A stretch of 64,000 nucleotides of DNA, from the IMG/VR virus record IMGVR_UViG_3300021963_000057, positions 40,627 to 104,626 of that record; one strand, given 5' to 3'. The notes beneath the pieces were generated by a model. That model was not told the origin of the DNA, did no database searches, and worked only from the letters and a program-made list of their open reading frames with translations. This document shows positions 22,013 through 41,219 of this stretch, in pieces (positions within the stretch are counted from its first letter, which is position 1; each line of letters opens with the position of its first letter). The position numbers and the translations under genes are program-made. The stretch is from a virus.

Positions 22013-22531
22013 ATGATTATTCGTGTGGTTAACTGTCCGGATAGAGACTTCAAACCCTTTATAGAAAGGGCAGCACAGTTTTACGCCAAGGAACTAATAC
22101 CCAATACACGCATAAGAAACAACTGTACAACAGAAATAAAGTTCTGTACAAAGATTAATGAATATGGTTTTGCAAGTATTGAAGATTACAATACCAGAAA
22201 ACAACCTCGAAAATTCTTAATAGAGATTCATCCCAACCTTGGTTCAAGAAGAATACTGGAAACACTGGCACATGAAATGGTTCATGTGAAACAATACATC
22301 GAAGGTGAAACCAATGATGAATTGACCAGATGGAGAGGTAAGAGAGTTGATCCAGACAAAATTGATTATTGGGTTCAGCCATGGGAGATAGATGCTTATG
22401 GTCGTGAACCAGGATTACTTACAAAGTTTGCAATATCGGAACATTTGTGGGAAGTATTTGATGATTTTGTTGATCCTTCCGGTCCAATAAATTGTTATCC
22501 TATTGCATGGAAATTAAAGAATGTCAGTTGA
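22013..22531 (+). CDS. HExxH zinc metallopeptidase-like protein
   Basis: TLAHEMVHVKQ and PWEIDA. Confidence 0.75.
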   Translation: MIIRVVNCPDRDFKPFIERAAQFYAKELIPNTRIRNNCTTEIKFCTKINEYGFASIEDYNTRKQPRKFLIEIHPNLGSRRILETLAHEMVHVKQYIEGETNDELTRWRGKRVDPDKIDYWVQPWEIDAYGREPGLLTKFAISEHLWEVFDDFVDPSGPINCYPIAWKLKNVS

Positions 22532-23060
22532 AGCGGATAGATTTACTTACGGCCAAGGTAACATAAAGATTGTTACAAATTTTCCAGGAAAAAAAGTCAA
22601 GTTAGGAAAATATTGTTCAGTTGCAGCAGATGTTCAAGCTTTTCTTGGTGGTAATCACAGAGTTGATTGGATAACAACGTTTCCTTTTGGTCACATAAGC
22701 ACAAGCGAAATCAATGTATCTAAAGTAGATGGACATCCAGGTACAAATGGTGATATCATTATTGGCAATGATGTTTGGTTAGGAACAGGATGTGTCTTAA
22801 TGTCTGGTATAACAATTGGTGATGGTGCTGTCGTTGCTGCACATTCTCATGTTGTTAAAGATGTTGCACCTTATACTCTTGTTGGTGGAAATCCAGCAAA
22901 GCCAATCAAACTTAGATTCGAACAACATATTGTTGATGCATTAATGGAATTAAAATGGTGGGATTTAGATGTTGATGTGGTAAAGTTAATCGTTCCGGTC
23001 TTGTGTGCTGAACCAAATTATGATACAATCCAAGACTTAATACAAAAATATAAAAAATAA
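22521..23060 (+). CDS. Hexapeptide-repeat O-acetyltransferase (CatB/Vat family)
   Basis: LGKYCSVA, GGNHRVDWITTFPF, IGNDVWLG, VGGNPAK, LKWWD. Confidence 0.9.
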   Translation: MSVEADRFTYGQGNIKIVTNFPGKKVKLGKYCSVAADVQAFLGGNHRVDWITTFPFGHISTSEINVSKVDGHPGTNGDIIIGNDVWLGTGCVLMSGITIGDGAVVAAHSHVVKDVAPYTLVGGNPAKPIKLRFEQHIVDALMELKWWDLDVDVVKLIVPVLCAEPNYDTIQDLIQKYKK

Positions 23061-23074
23061 TTTCAAAAAACCGC

Positions 23075-23103
23075 TTGCCGAGGCTTAAAAGTTCCTATAT
23101 AAT
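23075..23103 (+). promoter_or_regulatory. Sigma70 promoter for leader peptide / tRNA operon
   Basis: TTGCCG-N17-TATAAT, ATG 6 nt downstream. Confidence 0.7.
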
Positions 23104-23109
23104 AACACT

Positions 23110-23223
23110 ATGAAAAATATTAAACACATATCCTTATCGTTGCAGCCGGAGTATCGCACATTTAATTGCGCTGATAGCTCATGGGCGATTACGACCGGGT
23201 TTTGTGTAAAGATGGAGAACTAA
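23110..23223 (+). CDS. Putative attenuator leader peptide, 37 aa
   Basis: MKNIKHISLSLQPEYRTFNCADSSWAITTGFCVKMEN; its 3' codons pair with the terminator 5' arm. Confidence 0.65.
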   Translation: MKNIKHISLSLQPEYRTFNCADSSWAITTGFCVKMEN

Positions 23224-23253
23224 TACAGAAGTTCTAAAAAAGACTCCAAACAC

Positions 23254-23286
23254 AAAACCCTAGACCTAAAAAATCTAGGGTTTTTT
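23254..23286 (+). terminator. Intrinsic terminator (attenuator)
   Basis: AAAACCCTAGA/TCTAGGGTTTT plus U-run. Confidence 0.85.
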
Positions 23287-23290
23287 GTTT

Positions 23291-23341
23291 GTTGTTTCAA
23301 TACAACGTAGTGGTTGCCAGAATCTTTGGTTCTGTTACAAT
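23291..23341 (+). promoter_or_regulatory. Palindromic operator plus promoter (copy 1)
   Basis: GTTGTTTCAATACAAC, 7 nt, TTGCCA-N16-TACAAT with extended TG. Confidence 0.55.
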
Positions 23342-23347
23342 ACACAC

Positions 23348-23373
23348 TGTTCTTTAAAAATTTGTTGTAGTTT
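23348..23373 (+). promoter_or_regulatory. boxA-like antitermination element (copy 1)
   Basis: TGTTCTTTAAAAATTTGTTGTAGTTT, identical at 24231. Confidence 0.65.
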
Positions 23374-23377
23374 ATGT

Positions 23378-23453
23378 TGGGGTTTCGCCTAGTGGCCTAA
23401 GGCAACGGTCTTTGAAATCGTCATCATCAGTTCGAATCTGATAACCCCTGCCA
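23378..23453 (+). tRNA. tRNA-Gln (TTG)
   Basis: Cloverleaf, loop CTTTGAA, CCA. Confidence 0.92.
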
Positions 23454-23530
23454 TATAAAAACACACTGCTACAATAGCAGGCGAAAGTCCTACGCTAGAA
23501 GTTAAAACTAGGTAGTGTGTTTCTATATGG
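23451..23530 (+). ncRNA. Structured RNA closed by AAAACACACT/AGTGTGTTT stem (copy 1)
   Basis: 17-bp closing stem with one mismatch and small internal hairpins; related element at 29916. Confidence 0.45.
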
Positions 23531-23535
23531 TTAAT

Positions 23536-23627
23536 GGAAGATGATGCAGCGGGGATGGTCCTGCGACTGGCCTTGAAAACCAGGTTCTCAGAAATGGGAT
23601 GGGGTTCGACTCCTCCGTCTTCCGCCA
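23536..23627 (+). tRNA. tRNA-Ser (TGA), 8/4 acceptor/T-stem configuration
   Basis: GGAAGATG/CGTCTTCC 8 bp, GGGG/CCTC 4 bp T stem, long variable arm, GCCA end. Confidence 0.85.
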
Positions 23628-23632
23628 AACAT

Positions 23633-23720
23633 AGAAGGTTGCCCGAGTGGTTAAGGGAGCAGTTTGCTAAACTGTCGTTGCGAAAGCGGCGCATCGGTTC
23701 GAATCCGATACCTTCTGCCA
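23633..23720 (+). tRNA. tRNA-Ser (GCT)
   Basis: Loop TTGCTAA, long variable arm, GCCA. Confidence 0.93.
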
Positions 23721-23726
23721 GTAAAT

Positions 23727-23818
23727 GCCAGCGAGACTGGGTAGTCAGAGAGGTCTTATACACCTTTTAGCGCCAGATTAGCGTTCTTGAGTGAGTTCGA
23801 GTCTCACCGCTGGTACCA
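23727..23818 (+). tRNA. Atypical tRNA, anticodon TAT (Ile?), short D arm and long variable arm
   Basis: GCCAGCG/CGCTGGT, loop CTTATAC, T arm GTGAG-TTCGAGT-CTCAC, ACCA. Confidence 0.7.
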
Positions 23819-23833
23819 AATGAAAGAGAAGTT

Positions 23834-24073
23834 ATGTGGAATATTAAAATTGAAAATGGAATGATATTAAATGCAAGTCCAACTTTGGACGATGCAATGA
23901 AGTTTGCAAAAGGTTACAACAAGTTTGTAACCATCACCGATGGCACTACAGAGATTGTAGGTAAGTTTGGTGTTGATGCAGTAGAAGAAAAAGTTTTACC
24001 AGATGGTGGAACATACGATTGGACTATGCGGCGTGATGAAACACACCGTAGTTCAAGGAAGAAATTAATGTAG
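23834..24073 (+). CDS. Hypothetical protein
   Basis: 79 aa ORF within tRNA array. Confidence 0.65.
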   Translation: MWNIKIENGMILNASPTLDDAMKFAKGYNKFVTITDGTTEIVGKFGVDAVEEKVLPDGGTYDWTMRRDETHRSSRKKLM

Positions 24074-24145
24074 GTGTGACCCGAAAGGCTAGGGAACGGA
24101 TTGCAACCCCGTTTTATGCAGGTTCGATTCCTGTCACCTACTCCA
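24070..24145 (+). tRNA. tRNA-Cys (GCA)
   Basis: Loop TTGCAAC, U73, CCA. Confidence 0.9.
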
Positions 24146-24150
24146 AACAC

Positions 24151-24202
24151 GTTGTAGAAATACAACACACTGGTTGACAATGATTCATGGTTGTGTTATA
24201 CT
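24151..24202 (+). promoter_or_regulatory. Palindromic operator plus promoter (copy 2)
   Basis: GTTGTAGAAATACAAC, 7 nt, TTGACA-N17-TATACT. Confidence 0.75.
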
Positions 24203-24230
24203 TCATCTATGAATTGAGAAATCAATCAAA

Positions 24231-24256
24231 TGTTCTTTAAAAATTTGTTGTAGTTT
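24231..24256 (+). promoter_or_regulatory. boxA-like antitermination element (copy 2)
   Basis: 26-nt exact repeat of 23348-23373. Confidence 0.65.
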
Positions 24257-24259
24257 TTT

Positions 24260-24334
24260 GCACCTATCGTCTATCGGTTAGGACGCTGCCCTTTCAAGGC
24301 GGAAAGAGGAGTTCGATTCTCCTTAGGTGTACCA
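24260..24334 (+). tRNA. tRNA-Glu (TTC)
   Basis: Loop CTTTCAA, CCA. Confidence 0.92.
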
Positions 24335-28463: not shown

Positions 28464-29891
28464 ATGTCAACTTTTGTAGATGCCGTTGTTAATCAAGATG
28501 CCCGTACCGCAAACGGTATGAAGGCTCGTAAGTCCACTGCTAATGCAGTTGTAGATTTGTTCTACAATGCAGGTGCTTCACGTGGTAAAAACATTGTGCC
28601 TGCTTTTGCAGCTGCAATGGCAGAAAACCGTGAACTCGCTTTGCGTGTTGCTGCTTGGTTGCGTGATGCTCGTGGTGGTGCCGGTGAACGTGAATCGTTC
28701 CGTACTATCTTGCGTTATTTGGAAAAGAATGACGTAGAAGCCGCAAAAGCATTGTTGACAAAGGTTCCTGAATTGGGCCGTTGGGACGACATTTTTGTAT
28801 TTGATTCTGACGTTATGAAGTCAGCAGCATTCACTATGTTGGGTGATGCGCTTCGTGCGAAGAATGGATTAGCTGCAAAGTGGACTCCTCGCCAAGGTAA
28901 ACTAGCGGCTGAAATCCGTCAGTTCTTTGGTATGTCCCCAAAGTTTTACCGTAAGTCTTTGGTTGAAATGACCAAAGTAGTTGAAACTCAAATGTGTGCG
29001 AAAGATTGGGATTCCATTAATTTCTCACACGTACCTTCCGTAGCGGCATCCCGTTACAAGAAGGCTTTTAATCGTAACACTCCAACTTATGCAGCTTATG
29101 TTGCTTCGTTGGTTAAGGGTGATAACCCTGAAGTTAAGGTTAATGCAGGTGCTGTGTTCCCATACGATGTGCTGAAAGGCCGTATCGGTGGTTACATTAA
29201 ATTCGACAAGACCGAATTGGACTTGGTGCAAAAACAATGGGAGGCTTTGCCTAACTTTGTTGGTGACGCAAACATTCTACCTTTGGTGGATGTTTCAGGT
29301 TCAATGACCTGCGCTGCAGGTGGTTATGGTTCCAAATCAGGTCTAACCTGTTTGGAAGTAGCAGTCTCTTTGGGACTATACTTGGCAGATAAGAATGAAG
29401 GCAAGTTCAAGGACACCTTCCTAACTTTCTCTGACAAACCAGAATTGTTGCACTTGAAAGGTAACATTAACCAAAAGATTGACCAAATGGTTAAATCTGA
29501 TTGGGGTATGTCTACTAACCTACACAAGGCGTTTGAAAGAATCCTTGATGTAGCAGTAAAAGGTGGCGTGCCACAAGAAGAAATGCCAGCGATGGTATTG
29601 ATTCTGTCAGACATGCAATTTAACGCTTGCGTTAGACATGATGACTCTGCTATGCAGATGATTGCACGTAAGTACAAAGAAGCAGGATATGATTTGCCAA
29701 AAGTTGTATTCTGGAACTTGAATGCCGCATACGGCAACGCTCCAGTAAAGTTCGATACTTCTGGTACTGCATTGGTATCTGGTTTCTCACCAGCAGTCGT
29801 AAAACCACTGTTGGCTGGTGACCTAGAAACCTTTACACCAGAATCTGTGATGCTTAAAACCATCATGGATGACCGTTACAAAGTATTGTGA
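28464..29891 (+). CDS. DUF2828 family, Ro60/TROVE-like protein with C-terminal vWA domain
   Basis: RDARGGAGER, GRWDD, AAKWTPR, MIDAS-like DVSGSM, SDMQF, VFWNL, VSGFSP. Confidence 0.85.
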   Translation: MSTFVDAVVNQDARTANGMKARKSTANAVVDLFYNAGASRGKNIVPAFAAAMAENRELALRVAAWLRDARGGAGERESFRTILRYLEKNDVEAAKALLTKVPELGRWDDIFVFDSDVMKSAAFTMLGDALRAKNGLAAKWTPRQGKLAAEIRQFFGMSPKFYRKSLVEMTKVVETQMCAKDWDSINFSHVPSVAASRYKKAFNRNTPTYAAYVASLVKGDNPEVKVNAGAVFPYDVLKGRIGGYIKFDKTELDLVQKQWEALPNFVGDANILPLVDVSGSMTCAAGGYGSKSGLTCLEVAVSLGLYLADKNEGKFKDTFLTFSDKPELLHLKGNINQKIDQMVKSDWGMSTNLHKAFERILDVAVKGGVPQEEMPAMVLILSDMQFNACVRHDDSAMQMIARKYKEAGYDLPKVVFWNLNAAYGNAPVKFDTSGTALVSGFSPAVVKPLLAGDLETFTPESVMLKTIMDDRYKVL

Positions 29892-40116: not shown

Positions 40117-41219
40117 AATTAGAATTTAATGATGCAGTACATTGTGCCAAAGTATTTGAAGATTACTTTGGTAACTTTGACCGTATTGATGAATATATGC
40201 GTGACCAGAAGTTGAATTCTCTGGCTGAACTTCCAGCCAATCCATTGTTTCCAATTGAAGATGAGTTATTTCAAGACTTCACAATGAAACCGGAAGATAT
40301 GGATTTTGAAGTTGTTGAGATTGATACCGAAACATGGACCAATCTATTGAACATCACTTCATCACATGTGAATATTCCACCAGTTGGTCGTAATGTCAAA
40401 GTGGCAGTACGTGAGAAGAACACAGGAAAGTACGTAGGTTTCATCCGTCTTGGTTCACCTGTAATCAACTGTAAACCTCGTAATGAATTGCTTGGACAAG
40501 TGTTTACACAAAAACCTGAGTGGGGTAAACGATTCAACAACTCTGCAATGATGGGTTTTGTTATCGTACCTGCACAACCATTTGGTTATAATTATCTTGG
40601 TGGTAAACTTCTGGCTGCAATCTGTACGTCACATGAAGTACGTGAGATTGTGAATAAGAAGTATGGTATGAATTTATGTTTGTTTGAGACTACCAGTTTG
40701 TATGGTAGTTCTAAGACTGTATCTCAATATGATGGTATGAAACCATATATCAGATATAAAGGTCTGACAGATTCTGATTTTCTGCCGATGATGCACGGTA
40801 AACCTTATTCAGACCTACGTGATTTCGTGCAGGATAAAGTCGGACCTTTGGTTGAAGATGATGCTTCTAGTAAGAAACTAAAAATCTCCATGAAGATTAT
40901 ATCACTTACTAAAGCAGCACTTAAAGGTACACCTGAAGGGGATACATTCTTAGCAACGATTGAGAAGGCCAAGGGGTTGACAGAACAAAAAAGATATTAC
41001 ATTAGTGATTATGGTTTCAGTAACATGGTCGACTATGTAAATTGTAAGACGGACGTGCTTATTCCTGGTGAAAATTATGAGAAACACAATCTGGTAAACT
41101 TGATTGAATGGTGGAGGAAAAAGGCTTGTAATCGGTATGAAACATTGTATAATGAAAACCGTTTGAAGAATGAACTTGAAATTTGGACTTCCGGAAAGGA
41201 GATCCAAATTATAAGATAA
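40113..41219 (+). CDS. DUF4338 / DruA-like protein (copy 2)
   Basis: PFGYNYLGGKLLA, ETTSLYG..SQYDG shared with ORF 12378. Confidence 0.65.
   Translation: MKLEFNDAVHCAKVFEDYFGNFDRIDEYMRDQKLNSLAELPANPLFPIEDELFQDFTMKPEDMDFEVVEIDTETWTNLLNITSSHVNIPPVGRNVKVAVREKNTGKYVGFIRLGSPVINCKPRNELLGQVFTQKPEWGKRFNNSAMMGFVIVPAQPFGYNYLGGKLLAAICTSHEVREIVNKKYGMNLCLFETTSLYGSSKTVSQYDGMKPYIRYKGLTDSDFLPMMHGKPYSDLRDFVQDKVGPLVEDDASSKKLKISMKIISLTKAALKGTPEGDTFLATIEKAKGLTEQKRYYISDYGFSNMVDYVNCKTDVLIPGENYEKHNLVNLIEWWRKKACNRYETLYNENRLKNELEIWTSGKEIQIIR

Follow-up and report, generated by a model that had tools for sequence, protein, structure and literature searches.

A candidate leader-peptide transcription attenuator at the head of a phage tRNA array

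In the viral record IMGVR_UViG_3300021963_000057 (positions 40,627 to 104,626; this whole stretch of 64,000 nucleotides is called the window here, and all coordinates refer to it) a tRNA array covering all 20 amino acids extends to 30829 and is preceded by a compact unit made of a promoter, a short open reading frame and an intrinsic terminator, after which a second promoter and the first tRNA gene follow. The following features were located:

23075-23103, plus strand: promoter P1 of the sigma-70 type, TTGCCG (23075-23080), 17-nt spacer, TATAAT (23098-23103)
23110-23223, plus strand: leader ORF of 37 codons plus TAA, probably leaderless
23149-23184, plus strand: frozen core, GAGTATCGCACA ... 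TCATGG, codons E-Y-R-T ... S-W, bases invariant in relatives
23197-23207, plus strand: segment 2, the predicted antiterminator 5' strand, inside ORF codons 30-33, exact 11-nt complement of 23250-23260
23216-23235, plus strand: small hairpin AGAACT/AGTTCT enclosing the stop codon, taken from the MFE fold
23250-23260, plus strand: segment 3, the predicted antiterminator 3' strand, complementing segment 2
23254-23286, plus strand: intrinsic terminator with stem and T6 run, 9-nt loop and an A4/T4 extension from 23254
23314-23341, plus strand: promoter P2, TTGCCA, 16-nt spacer, TACAAT, extended -10 TG, taken from the promoter listing
23348-23359, plus strand: boxA-like element TGTTCTTTAAAA, located within the P2 transcript leader
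23378-23453, plus strand: tRNA-Gln(UUG), the first gene of the array, taken from the tRNA calls

A preliminary description of this DNA had pointed out P1 with an ATG 6 nt further on, a 37-codon ORF of unusual content and its pairing with a terminator, and all of these parts could be confirmed. The hexamers of P1 show 10 of 12 consensus matches in the promoter listing of the window, the ATG at 23110 follows TATAAT after 6 nt, and the ORF indeed covers all 20 amino acids with 31 distinct codons, including four for Ser (TCC, TCG, AGC and TCA), three for Thr (ACA, ACG and ACC), ATA and the rare TCG, CCG, CGC, GCG, ACG and GGG. The perfect complementarity is exact, GGGTTTTGTGT at 23197-23207 being the reverse complement of ACACAAAACCC at 23250-23260, and segment 3 overlaps the terminator as described, its last three nucleotides (CCC, 23258-23260) being the first three of the terminator stem. 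In this stem CCCTAGA (23258-23264) pairs with TCTAGGG (23274-23280), followed by six T at 23281-23286. A consensus terminator scan missed it solely because of the loop being longer than 8 nt, and the same terminator was called in the relative L148, a locus without the second promoter. The folding z-score is -5.1.

Following two independent routes, the neighbouring acetyltransferase and DNA motifs, we compiled 73 copies of the unit with 59 distinct peptides from IMG/VR viral contigs, their carriers being a group of uncultured T4-like phages. As the whole arrangement is found again in 73 related loci, it appears to be more than chance. Both P1 hexamers are kept among the relatives, and in one clade a T4-late-like TATAAATA motif replaces P1. 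The gene upstream of the unit differs among the members and a tRNA gene (Gln or Pro) comes next wherever the downstream sequence suffices, in most members 86-132 nt after the T-run; in two clades it lies 3-10 nt past the T-run with no promoter in between. Searching 50,697 phage records by megablast and blastn with the unit plus flanking sequence revealed no leader homologue in cultured phages, and the matches obtained there were rejected as tRNAs, acetyltransferase or terminator-like chance matches. In 596 Gb of prokaryote genomes the core pattern gave 61 matches, fewer than expected by chance and none with the family features. We found no publication on leader-peptide attenuators ahead of phage tRNA arrays. 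Of the runs with part of the stretch, 11 are recorded as RNA, and among the sequences of four of these, contigs of relatives span the leader, some of them crossing the terminator; these are assembled contigs with possible DNA carry-over, from which RNA ends, strand and level are unreadable.

Translation of the leader ORF is well supported by the comparison of the family members. Their indels are in frame only, the gap lengths in the core being 15, 18, 21, 24 or 27 nt, ATG is the start codon in 25 of 25 leaderless members, and the 35 members with a leader resembling a Shine-Dalgarno (SD) sequence start with GTG, ATG or TTG. Close relatives swap between leaderless and SD-led initiation with the frame unchanged. 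Start-codon logic and in-frame indels together thus show that the ORF is meant for translation. The sequence of the peptide is only weakly constrained: identity among relatives drops to about 27%, the crude dN/dS-like ratio outside the core is 0.4-0.7, and searches of Pfam and PHROGs with six diverse peptides of the family returned nothing better than E = 0.13. Across the family the motifs EYRT, SW and G-x-C are kept.

These data also bear on the idea that the unit is an ordinary small gene with the peptide of 31-44 amino acids as its product, perhaps one that modulates translation or tRNA metabolism, located ahead of the array by synteny only. Such a gene would explain the conserved ORF with its in-frame indels and proper starts, the conserved motifs, the dN/dS-like ratio below 1 and the own promoter and terminator that are followed by P2. 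It would explain neither the low identity outside the motifs and the missing relationship to any protein family in Pfam and PHROGs, nor the two clades with a promoter-free tRNA gene directly behind the T-run. Furthermore, its conserved residues are frozen at the nucleotide level, and a plain gene has no use for a covarying helix that breaks up its terminator and is not the stable state of the full-length RNA. We therefore regard an ordinary gene as improbable.

The frozen core is unchanged over 12 nt even at synonymous sites and a block of 6 nt is also invariant. The same bases are found in loci identified without using the core as query, and with a fully degenerate back-translated pattern all 32 loci found carry the exact core bases. 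EYRT and SW were consequently rejected as evidence for a functional peptide, as their codons are frozen at synonymous sites. Judged by comparison of the members, the core shows that the strongest selection acts on something besides codon content. An internal hairpin is possible within it (CGC with GCG/GTG, and TATC/GATA on either side), three pairs of which are predicted by RNAalifold, and no covariation support was obtained for a wider 5' domain. The core might possibly be a pause or timing hairpin, a role that we infer.

Since the 12-nt and 6-nt blocks are invariant beyond any coding need, the core hairpin could also bind a protein, a small molecule or, following a T-box-like logic, a tRNA, and the bound factor would choose between antiterminator and terminator, with the ORF being secondary; speculatively, the UGG of the core could in principle pair with the CCA at the 3' end of a tRNA. 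Against such a factor-controlled switch, Rfam searches of positions 22900-24300 yielded no family at threshold, T-box (RF00230) giving no match with E up to 1, and the Thr_leader (RF00506) reached 26.7 bits compared to a gathering threshold of 55 and covers only 23228-23289, that is the terminator. All indels in the core region are multiples of three, the start codons obey the rules of translation and segment 2 is always located inside the ORF. As a pure RNA-ligand switch requires neither a preserved frame nor translation-rule starts, we consider this explanation decidedly improbable.

The pairing between segments 2 and 3 (2:3 helix) received the clearest comparative signal. In alignment A2, 92% of the cells are paired, compared to 27-53% in slid controls, 8 of the 14 pairs show changes on both sides, and none of 500 shuffles reaches the observed score. 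Cognate 2:3 duplexes have a mean energy of -18.3 kcal/mol, non-cognate ones -13.9 and shuffled ones -8.1 kcal/mol (0 of 5000 permutations), and RNAalifold recovers the helix unaided. In 64 of 65 members the best partner of segment 3 falls within the final 45 nt of the ORF, and in all 65 the helix uses 3-6 nt of the terminator 5' arm. From this covariation we conclude that the predicted antiterminator helix is real and selected. The terminator itself is present in 72 of the 73 members as a G+C-rich stem of 7-10 bp with a T-run, and its stem shows compensatory changes as well (e.g. CCCTAGA/TCTAGGG versus CCCGAGA/TCTCGGG). Comparison thus shows the two predicted structures to be mutually exclusive. 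In folding snapshots the 2:3 helix is the MFE state before the terminator 3' arm exists (63 of 65 members), whereas in the fold of the full-length RNA the terminator beats it, and being unstable there the helix must act during transcription.

A third element of classical attenuators, the anti-antiterminator, pause or 1:2 helix by which an untranslated leader is made to terminate, is possible in the MFE fold but has no covariation support among the family members: 225 of 500 shuffles reach its score, and cognate duplexes (-18.4 kcal/mol) hardly differ from non-cognate ones (-17.6 kcal/mol). The strong predicted structure (the z-score given above) and the nucleotide conservation that continues beyond the stop codon, with the 3' arm AAGTTCT of the small hairpin kept in the near clade, would also suit a leader RNA of about 180 nt which is itself the product, namely a stable trans-acting sRNA with a vestigial or dual-use ORF, in the manner of rnTrpL or of the small RNAs from the T4 tRNA region; sRNAs derived from attenuators are reported in PMC6614838. 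Such an sRNA would be compatible with attenuation as well, it has no known target, the reading frame and start signals are retained, and the covarying helix is absent from the stable fold of the full-length RNA, so that we hold this reading to be highly improbable. A type I toxin or sRNA suggested by a weak ohsC match on the minus strand was rejected, the match being the terminator palindrome only.

The content of the leader peptide is unusual. All 20 amino acids are present in 42 of the 59 peptides (31-44 aa), with about 0.03-0.6% expected by chance, while 17 peptides (29%) are without one to three of them; complete sets are found in 0.07% of the 37-aa windows in the phage's own proteins, in 0.24% of random peptides and in 4.4% after pooled shuffling, and shuffling within columns inside clades lowers the complete fraction from 0.80 to 0.58 and from 0.61 to 0.33, with 6 and 2 of 3000 shuffles reaching the observed value, all of these statistics ignoring the shared ancestry of the members. 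Amino acids move their position between relatives but stay present; for A, C, H, V, P and L the column that provides the residue varies from member to member. Most amino acids are represented by one or two residues (H, Q, W and Y by exactly one in 83-91% of the peptides) and codon runs for sensed amino acids are absent; without clustered regulatory codons the element is a variant of the leader-peptide attenuators. At least 31 distinct codons are reached by 0.17% of 37-codon gene windows, the codon rarity of the leader falls into a 0.09% tail, and rare codons occur in 62 of 62 leaders. Rare and diverse codons are spread throughout the ORF, also beyond the helices. The check proposed in the preliminary description, that homologous leaders should keep codon diversity and stem covariation instead of the peptide sequence, was thereby carried out and agrees with it: both are retained as the peptide drifts to about 27% identity.

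The idea that an amino acid missing from a peptide corresponds to a tRNA missing from the array was rejected, as the tRNA gene is present at the five informative full-array loci (L121, L102 and L181 have full tRNA sets with peptides lacking A, V and A, respectively, and in L063 and L149 the missing tRNA differs from the missing amino acid), most other loci being too short to judge. This lack of correspondence, together with the 29% of incomplete peptides, would fit a general coupling sensor without any amino-acid census, which reports whether any ribosome trails the polymerase and answers to host shut-off, translation inhibitors or ribosome shortage, the variety of amino acids being a by-product of fitting RNA helices and a frozen core into so short an ORF. 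The strongest constraint acting on the RNA (frozen synonymous sites and covarying helix) and the origin of Gly and Val from the G/U-rich segment 2 point in the same direction. On the other hand, the content of all 20 amino acids is far above the composition-matched nulls, within clades amino acids change columns but persist, and rare, diverse codons are also found outside the helices. A sensor of coupling alone thus seems unlikely to us.

As far as comparison within the family can show, the ORF is kept translatable, the unit goes together with tRNA genes and the full set of amino acids is preserved. Taking this together with the helix evidence, we think it rather likely that the unit is a ribosome-dependent leader-peptide transcription attenuator of the trp type heading the phage tRNA array. 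The RNA from P1 would begin at the first codon of a 37-codon test ORF, and segment 2 in its last codons could pair with segment 3, which overlaps the terminator base. If translation proceeds promptly to the end of the ORF, ribosomes would unwind or cover segment 2 while the polymerase makes the terminator, which could then form and stop the P1 transcript at about 23286-23292. Should the ribosome lag, be missing or stall within about the first two thirds of the ORF, segments 2 and 3 would pair, the terminator stem would lose its bottom 3-6 pairs and the polymerase would read through. Faltering translation would in this way probably lead to read-through into the tRNA genes. As (nearly) every amino acid is used once or twice and many codons are rare, the ORF would report overall decoding capacity, and a lack of nearly any charged tRNA would hold the ribosome back, resulting in negative feedback on the tRNA supply during infection. 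Whether the ORF is indeed a pangram sensor, kept complete by selection and opening the terminator upon shortage, cleavage or non-charging of almost any tRNA, is a more tentative matter, which we regard as possible but still somewhat doubtful. We only infer the sign and timing of the response as well as the link to host defence, and the part concerning anticodon nucleases is pure conjecture.

Two details of the model had to be modified. It had been proposed that a ribosome reaching the stop codon masks the antiterminator, but a ribosome at 23221 would cover only the last few nucleotides of segment 2: the stop codon is located 14 nt beyond segment 2 here and up to 24 nt in some relatives, so that a terminating ribosome would cover little of it, and masking must occur during the passage of codons 30-33. 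Read-through had also been proposed for stalling at any tRNA. The sole Gly and Val codons of the leader in this genome lie within segment 2, where a stalled ribosome would mask this segment itself, and hence the simple model would leave about 18 amino acids, at most, to be sensed.

The preliminary description had also seen the attenuator as controlling the array and had mentioned a weaker promoter at 23314 as a possible bypass. This promoter, P2, is present and conserved but not obviously weaker than P1: its hexamers match at 10 of 12 positions, with an extended -10 TG in addition, and are kept among relatives while the spacer diverges, and it is located about 25-35 nt past the T-run in most members. 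In its transcript leader TGTTCTTTAAAA is invariant in the relatives, with an identical copy at 24231 behind another array promoter, and it may resemble the rrn boxA consensus TGCTCTTTAACAA; boxA elements of the rrn type are found near the start of untranslated stable-RNA transcripts and are bound by NusB/NusE. There are further promoters inside the tRNA array. P2 would thus drive the array independently of the leader, and given P2, the boxA-like element and the promoters within the array, the unit can contribute to the transcription of the array, here and in most relatives, without controlling it. Of the attenuator interpretation, the ribosome-mediated geometry, the translatable ORF and the covarying stem hold, whereas sole control of the array does not. 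Read-through would supplement P2 transcription in this genome, and in the two promoter-free clades, where no source of the first one or two tRNAs other than read-through is visible, the terminator appears to truly gate the tRNA genes.

The proposed element can be compared to several known systems. Among enterobacterial amino-acid operons, the thr leader senses Thr and Ile and the ilvGMEDA leader Ile, Leu and Val. Both share with the phage unit a short translated ORF, an intrinsic terminator, an upstream antiterminator strand within the reach of the ribosome and the sensing of more than one amino acid per leader. They use codon runs for two or three amino acids instead of (nearly) all 20 without runs, precede biosynthetic enzymes and not tRNA genes, and their ORFs stop before the antiterminator strand, whereas the phage ORF passes through it; also unlike them, the unit is phage-borne and its 1:2 helix is without support. 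With E. coli trpL it has in common the promoter, the short ORF, the alternative 2:3 and 3:4 helices, the U-run terminator and a stop codon about 60-70 nt ahead of the terminator end, but it is without the tandem Trp codons in segment 1 and the well-defined 1:2 pause hairpin, and many family members are leaderless, in contrast to the SD-led trpL. A T-box recognises one particular uncharged tRNA by direct binding, for which no translation is required. The unit is likewise a leader RNA that can form either a terminator or an antiterminator and would answer to tRNA status; the features of its ORF point to ribosome sensing and it gave no T-box match.

In mycobacteria, leaderless short polycysteine ORFs are described in a preprint as Cys-responsive attenuators (bioRxiv 10.1101/834739). 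They resemble the phage unit in the leaderless 5' ORF and the translation-dependent control of downstream genes and differ from it in sensing a single amino acid and in being located in cellular operons with protein-coding genes downstream. The trn L-array of Anabaena sp. PCC 7120 is silent until translation is impaired (PMC8421152; the words leader, attenuation and terminator are absent from this text), and PMC10272220 places its control at the promoter level, with the repressor TrcR acting on direct repeats. It shares with the phage array its length and, under the proposed model, the physiological logic of expression rising upon translation trouble, but it is cellular and located on a megaplasmid.

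Leader-peptide attenuation is textbook knowledge, known from operons for the synthesis or charging of one to three amino acids. The element described here would extend it to tRNAs as the regulated genes and to a sampling of the whole amino-acid alphabet, and would offer a testable answer to the question how and why large phages regulate big tRNA arrays. Being compact, modular and equipped with sigma-70 signals, it should be transferable to reporter and cell-free systems and might find use as a general biosensor for translation capacity. The family itself represents a natural experiment with leaderless and SD-led members and with members with and without a downstream promoter. It would also show a virus measuring the decoding capacity of its host in cis with about 180 nt of RNA. 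If the ORF does sense the complete set, it would be the first known whole-alphabet attenuator and the first one gating tRNA genes, and T4-like phages would have closed-loop control over their own full tRNA set, a homeostat of translation capacity that would also answer to depletion of host tRNAs, including that by anticodon nucleases.

Each element of the preliminary description, namely a promoter, an ORF, an 11-nt complementarity, a terminator and a second promoter, was found in its place at the head of the tRNA array. This confirms the observation itself, and the interpretation is partly supported. The RNA of the unit has a folding z of −5.1 and its parts are the following.

Parts of the unit and start of the array (window positions)
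23075–23103: promoter P1 from sequence reading, TTGCCG at 23075, 17-nt spacer, TATAAT at 23098–23103
23110–23223: leader ORF, ATG at 23110 (6 nt past TATAAT), 37 codons, TAA at 23221–23223
23197–23207: segment 2, GGGTTTTGTGT, exact complement of segment 3
23250–23260: segment 3, ACACAAAACCC, exact complement of segment 2
23258–23286: terminator, stem 23258–23264 with 23274–23280, six T at 23281–23286
23314–23341: promoter P2, TTGCCA-N16-TACAAT with extended −10 TG
23378: tRNA-Gln, first gene of an array reaching 30829 and covering all 20 amino acids

The window lies within an IMG/VR contig of 104.6 kb with a completeness rating of 62%. The source is a T4-like phage, though a divergent one: its DNA polymerase shares ~50% identity with cyanomyovirus counterparts and other replication and head genes are consistent with this placement. 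The unit was absent from cultured phages in a BLAST search of the unit and its flanks against 50,697 phage records, and searching 185,579 prokaryote genomes with its pattern gave chance hits only. Related IMG/VR loci were collected by two independent routes, via the upstream acetyltransferase, which led to loci L003–L016, and via DNA motifs from the unit, which led to many more. With chance hits removed, the family comprises 73 members, which between them encode 59 distinct peptides (31–44 residues). The acetyltransferase gene (22521–23060), located directly upstream of P1, resembles Vat-type streptogramin/xenobiotic O-acetyltransferases as judged by the annotation of blastn hits in Streptococcus phages, and is found upstream of the unit in some relatives only.

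The helix between segments 2 and 3, the proposed antiterminator, is under selection. In a MAFFT alignment of 47 members its 14 pairs are 92% paired, compared with 27–53% for partners shifted by one to three columns, and 8 of the 14 pairs have changed on both sides, with scores reached in 0/500 shuffles. Compensatory changes include G-C to A-U in L116 and, in both L102 and L181, U-A/U·G to C-G; in L118 the distal half has been replaced as a whole. RNAalifold finds the helix unprompted. Cognate duplexes reach a mean of −18.3 kcal/mol (0/5000 permutations did so), non-cognate ones, whose two segments come from different members, −13.9 kcal/mol, and shuffled segment 2 with segment 3 −8.1 kcal/mol. 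When the whole leader was searched, the best partner of segment 3 fell within the final 45 nt of the ORF for 64/65 members, and in 65/65 the helix takes 3–6 nt of the 7–10 bp terminator stem. Folding snapshots show it as the MFE state after segment 3 and before the terminator 3' arm in 63/65 members, and the terminator as the MFE state of the full-length RNA. Because the helix covaries but does not belong to the stable final fold, it must act during transcription, which is the hallmark of an attenuator. A helix between segment 2 and an upstream segment 1, a possible anti-antiterminator or pause helix, is unsupported, as 225/500 shuffles reach its covariation score and cognate and non-cognate duplexes differ little.

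Three comparative lines say that the leader ORF is translated. The variable stretch of its core (the frozen EYRT ... SW stretch) measures 15, 18, 21, 24 or 27 nt in 76/76 pattern hits of this size class, and indels elsewhere in the ORF are also in frame. Leaderless initiation requires ATG, and the 25 leaderless members, with the start codon 5–6 nt after the −10 hexamer, always use it; the 35 members with a ~30-nt leader and a purine-rich SD-like motif start with GTG (21), ATG (7) or TTG (7). Finally, the start mode switches between close relatives with the frame kept, as in the window and L066, whose peptides are 84% identical.

The peptide itself is probably not the purpose of the unit. Six diverse family peptides matched no Pfam or PHROG family, and outside the core a crude variant count gives a nonsynonymous-to-synonymous ratio of 0.4–0.7, which we take as weak constraint. 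Relatives had been expected to keep codon diversity and stem covariation while the peptide drifts, and this is what we found, with identity between clades down to about 27% and the helix paired as described. Conservation of the core is at the nucleotide level: when its 14 residues were back-translated with full degeneracy, 32 loci were retrieved, all of them carrying the exact bases GAGTATCGCACA and TCATGG for EYRT and SW, and only three synonymous sites vary. RNAalifold predicts a small hairpin here, and one guess is that it might be a pause or timing signal.

The ORF in the window contains all 20 amino acids, spelled with 31 distinct codons. Each figure falls in the 0.1–0.2% tail of the phage's own gene windows, as does its codon rarity (mean ln RSCU −0.28 vs +0.17 ± 0.12 for gene windows). 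Among the 59 peptides 42 have 20 amino acids, 14 have 19, two have 18 and one has 17. This 72% compares with 4.4% after pooling and reshuffling the variable residues of the family, with 0.025% and 0.6% for random peptides of 31 and 41 residues, and with 0/14,255 31-residue windows of the source phage's proteins. Shuffling residues within columns inside each clade (3000 shuffles) lowered completeness from 0.80 to 0.58, from 0.61 to 0.33 and from 0.80 to 0.34 in clades 1, 2 and 3, the observed values being reached 6, 2 and 58 times, respectively. For A, C, H, V, P, L, I and K the supplying column differs by member and absence is rare. Mean ln RSCU (source phage's codon table) is negative in 62/62 distinct leader ORFs, and one in five leader codons is used for <10% of its synonymous family. 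These statistics are uncorrected for kinship and show a strong tendency, short of proof of selection. Amino acids missing from leaders did not track tRNAs missing from arrays at the five informative loci with full arrays.

The order of promoter, ORF, helix partner, terminator and tRNA gene is constant across the family, and a tRNA gene directly follows the unit in every member with enough downstream sequence. As the gene upstream of P1 varies, it is the tRNA array that the unit travels with, rather than the gene on its upstream side. Two clades have no promoter in the 3–10 nt that separate the T-run from the tRNA gene; in L148 tRNA-Gln and tRNA-Ser(UGA) follow the terminator immediately, and about 800 nt separate the unit from the next downstream promoter-like site (≥10/12 consensus matches). 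In most members tRNA-Gln lies 86–132 nt past the T-run with P2 between, in many together with an invariant element TGTTCTTTAA, which we liken to the rrn boxA. P2, suspected from the outset as a bypass, has the signature of a real promoter, since its hexamers are conserved among relatives while the spacer varies freely. In the two clades lacking an intervening promoter the unit would gate the tRNA genes that follow it; in the source genome P2 and the boxA-like element probably make the array partly independent of it.

An identical boxA-like TGTTCTTTAAAAATTTG occurs at 23348–23363 and 24231–24246, a few bases past two array promoters (P2, at 23314, and a second one at 24174, TTGACA-N17-TATACT), and this repetition suggests that the untranslated tRNA transcripts undergo antitermination of the rrn type. 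The clade of L104 and L145 lacks a sigma-70 −35/−10 pair before its leader and has TATAAATA, the T4 late-promoter motif, 5 nt before the ATG (L145:5064), so that the unit may be expressed late there; a single tRNA-Pro lies between its terminator and the next promoter. Within the array, 23536–23623 is a tRNA-like gene not called by ARAGORN (Rfam tRNA-Sec model 35.5 bits, threshold 47). A tRNA-Ser(UGA) is called at this position in relatives (L009 4992–5081, L148 1483–1570), and the gene is probably of that kind too, class II and unusual in the region of its anticodon stem. The 92-nt ARAGORN tRNA-Ile at 23727–23818 (anticodon UAU, long variable arm) scores in Rfam with the tRNA-Sec model only (29.3 bits), is conserved in L004, L007, L009 and L148, and would be an unusual AUA decoder or a tRNA mimic. 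The tRNA island also encodes a 475-aa protein (28464–29891) that is covered from end to end by a match to PHROG 850, 'RNA-binding protein' (E = 3e-140).

From these comparisons we consider it fairly probable that the unit is a trp-type, ribosome-dependent attenuator. A ribosome reaching the ORF end in step with the polymerase would remove segment 2 and let the terminator form; if it is late, absent or stalled, segment 2 would stay free, the antiterminator would form and the polymerase would read through into the tRNA genes. The proposal that a ribosome at the stop masks the antiterminator fits poorly, because segment 2 and the stop codon are 14 nt apart in the window and up to 24 nt apart in other members; masking would depend on ribosome transit and not on a ribosome parked at the stop. 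A C-terminal GWDG extension, which shifts the stop codon to about 24 nt past segment 2 at most, occurs in two otherwise different clades (L070, L098, L113, L132, L150, L170, L177; GWDE in L082). It may be a module exchanged by recombination, or else a signal, in peptide or RNA form, that works at termination. That the leader senses any tRNA agrees with the presence of all 20 amino acids, but the Gly and Val codons inside segment 2 stand against it, and we regard the full reading, a leader reporting the whole amino-acid alphabet, as tentative and somewhat doubtful. With such an alphabet spelled in rare codons, what the unit gauges would be decoding capacity as a whole, with feedback on the supply of tRNAs.

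The thr and ilvGMEDA leaders are multivalent leader-peptide attenuators, and trpL is the attenuator of the trp operon. The unit is no T-box and no other Rfam family matched at threshold, and a full-text literature search turned up no description of tRNA genes under the control of a leader peptide. In physiology, the closest published case is the trn array of Anabaena, which is switched on by translational stress (PMC8421152) and controlled by the promoter-bound repressor TrcR (PMC10272220), unlike the attenuation proposed here. In its working principle the unit resembles the thr, ilvGMEDA and trpL leaders and would extend this known leader-peptide attenuation, differing from them in that it gates tRNA genes, does so without codon runs and is carried by a phage.
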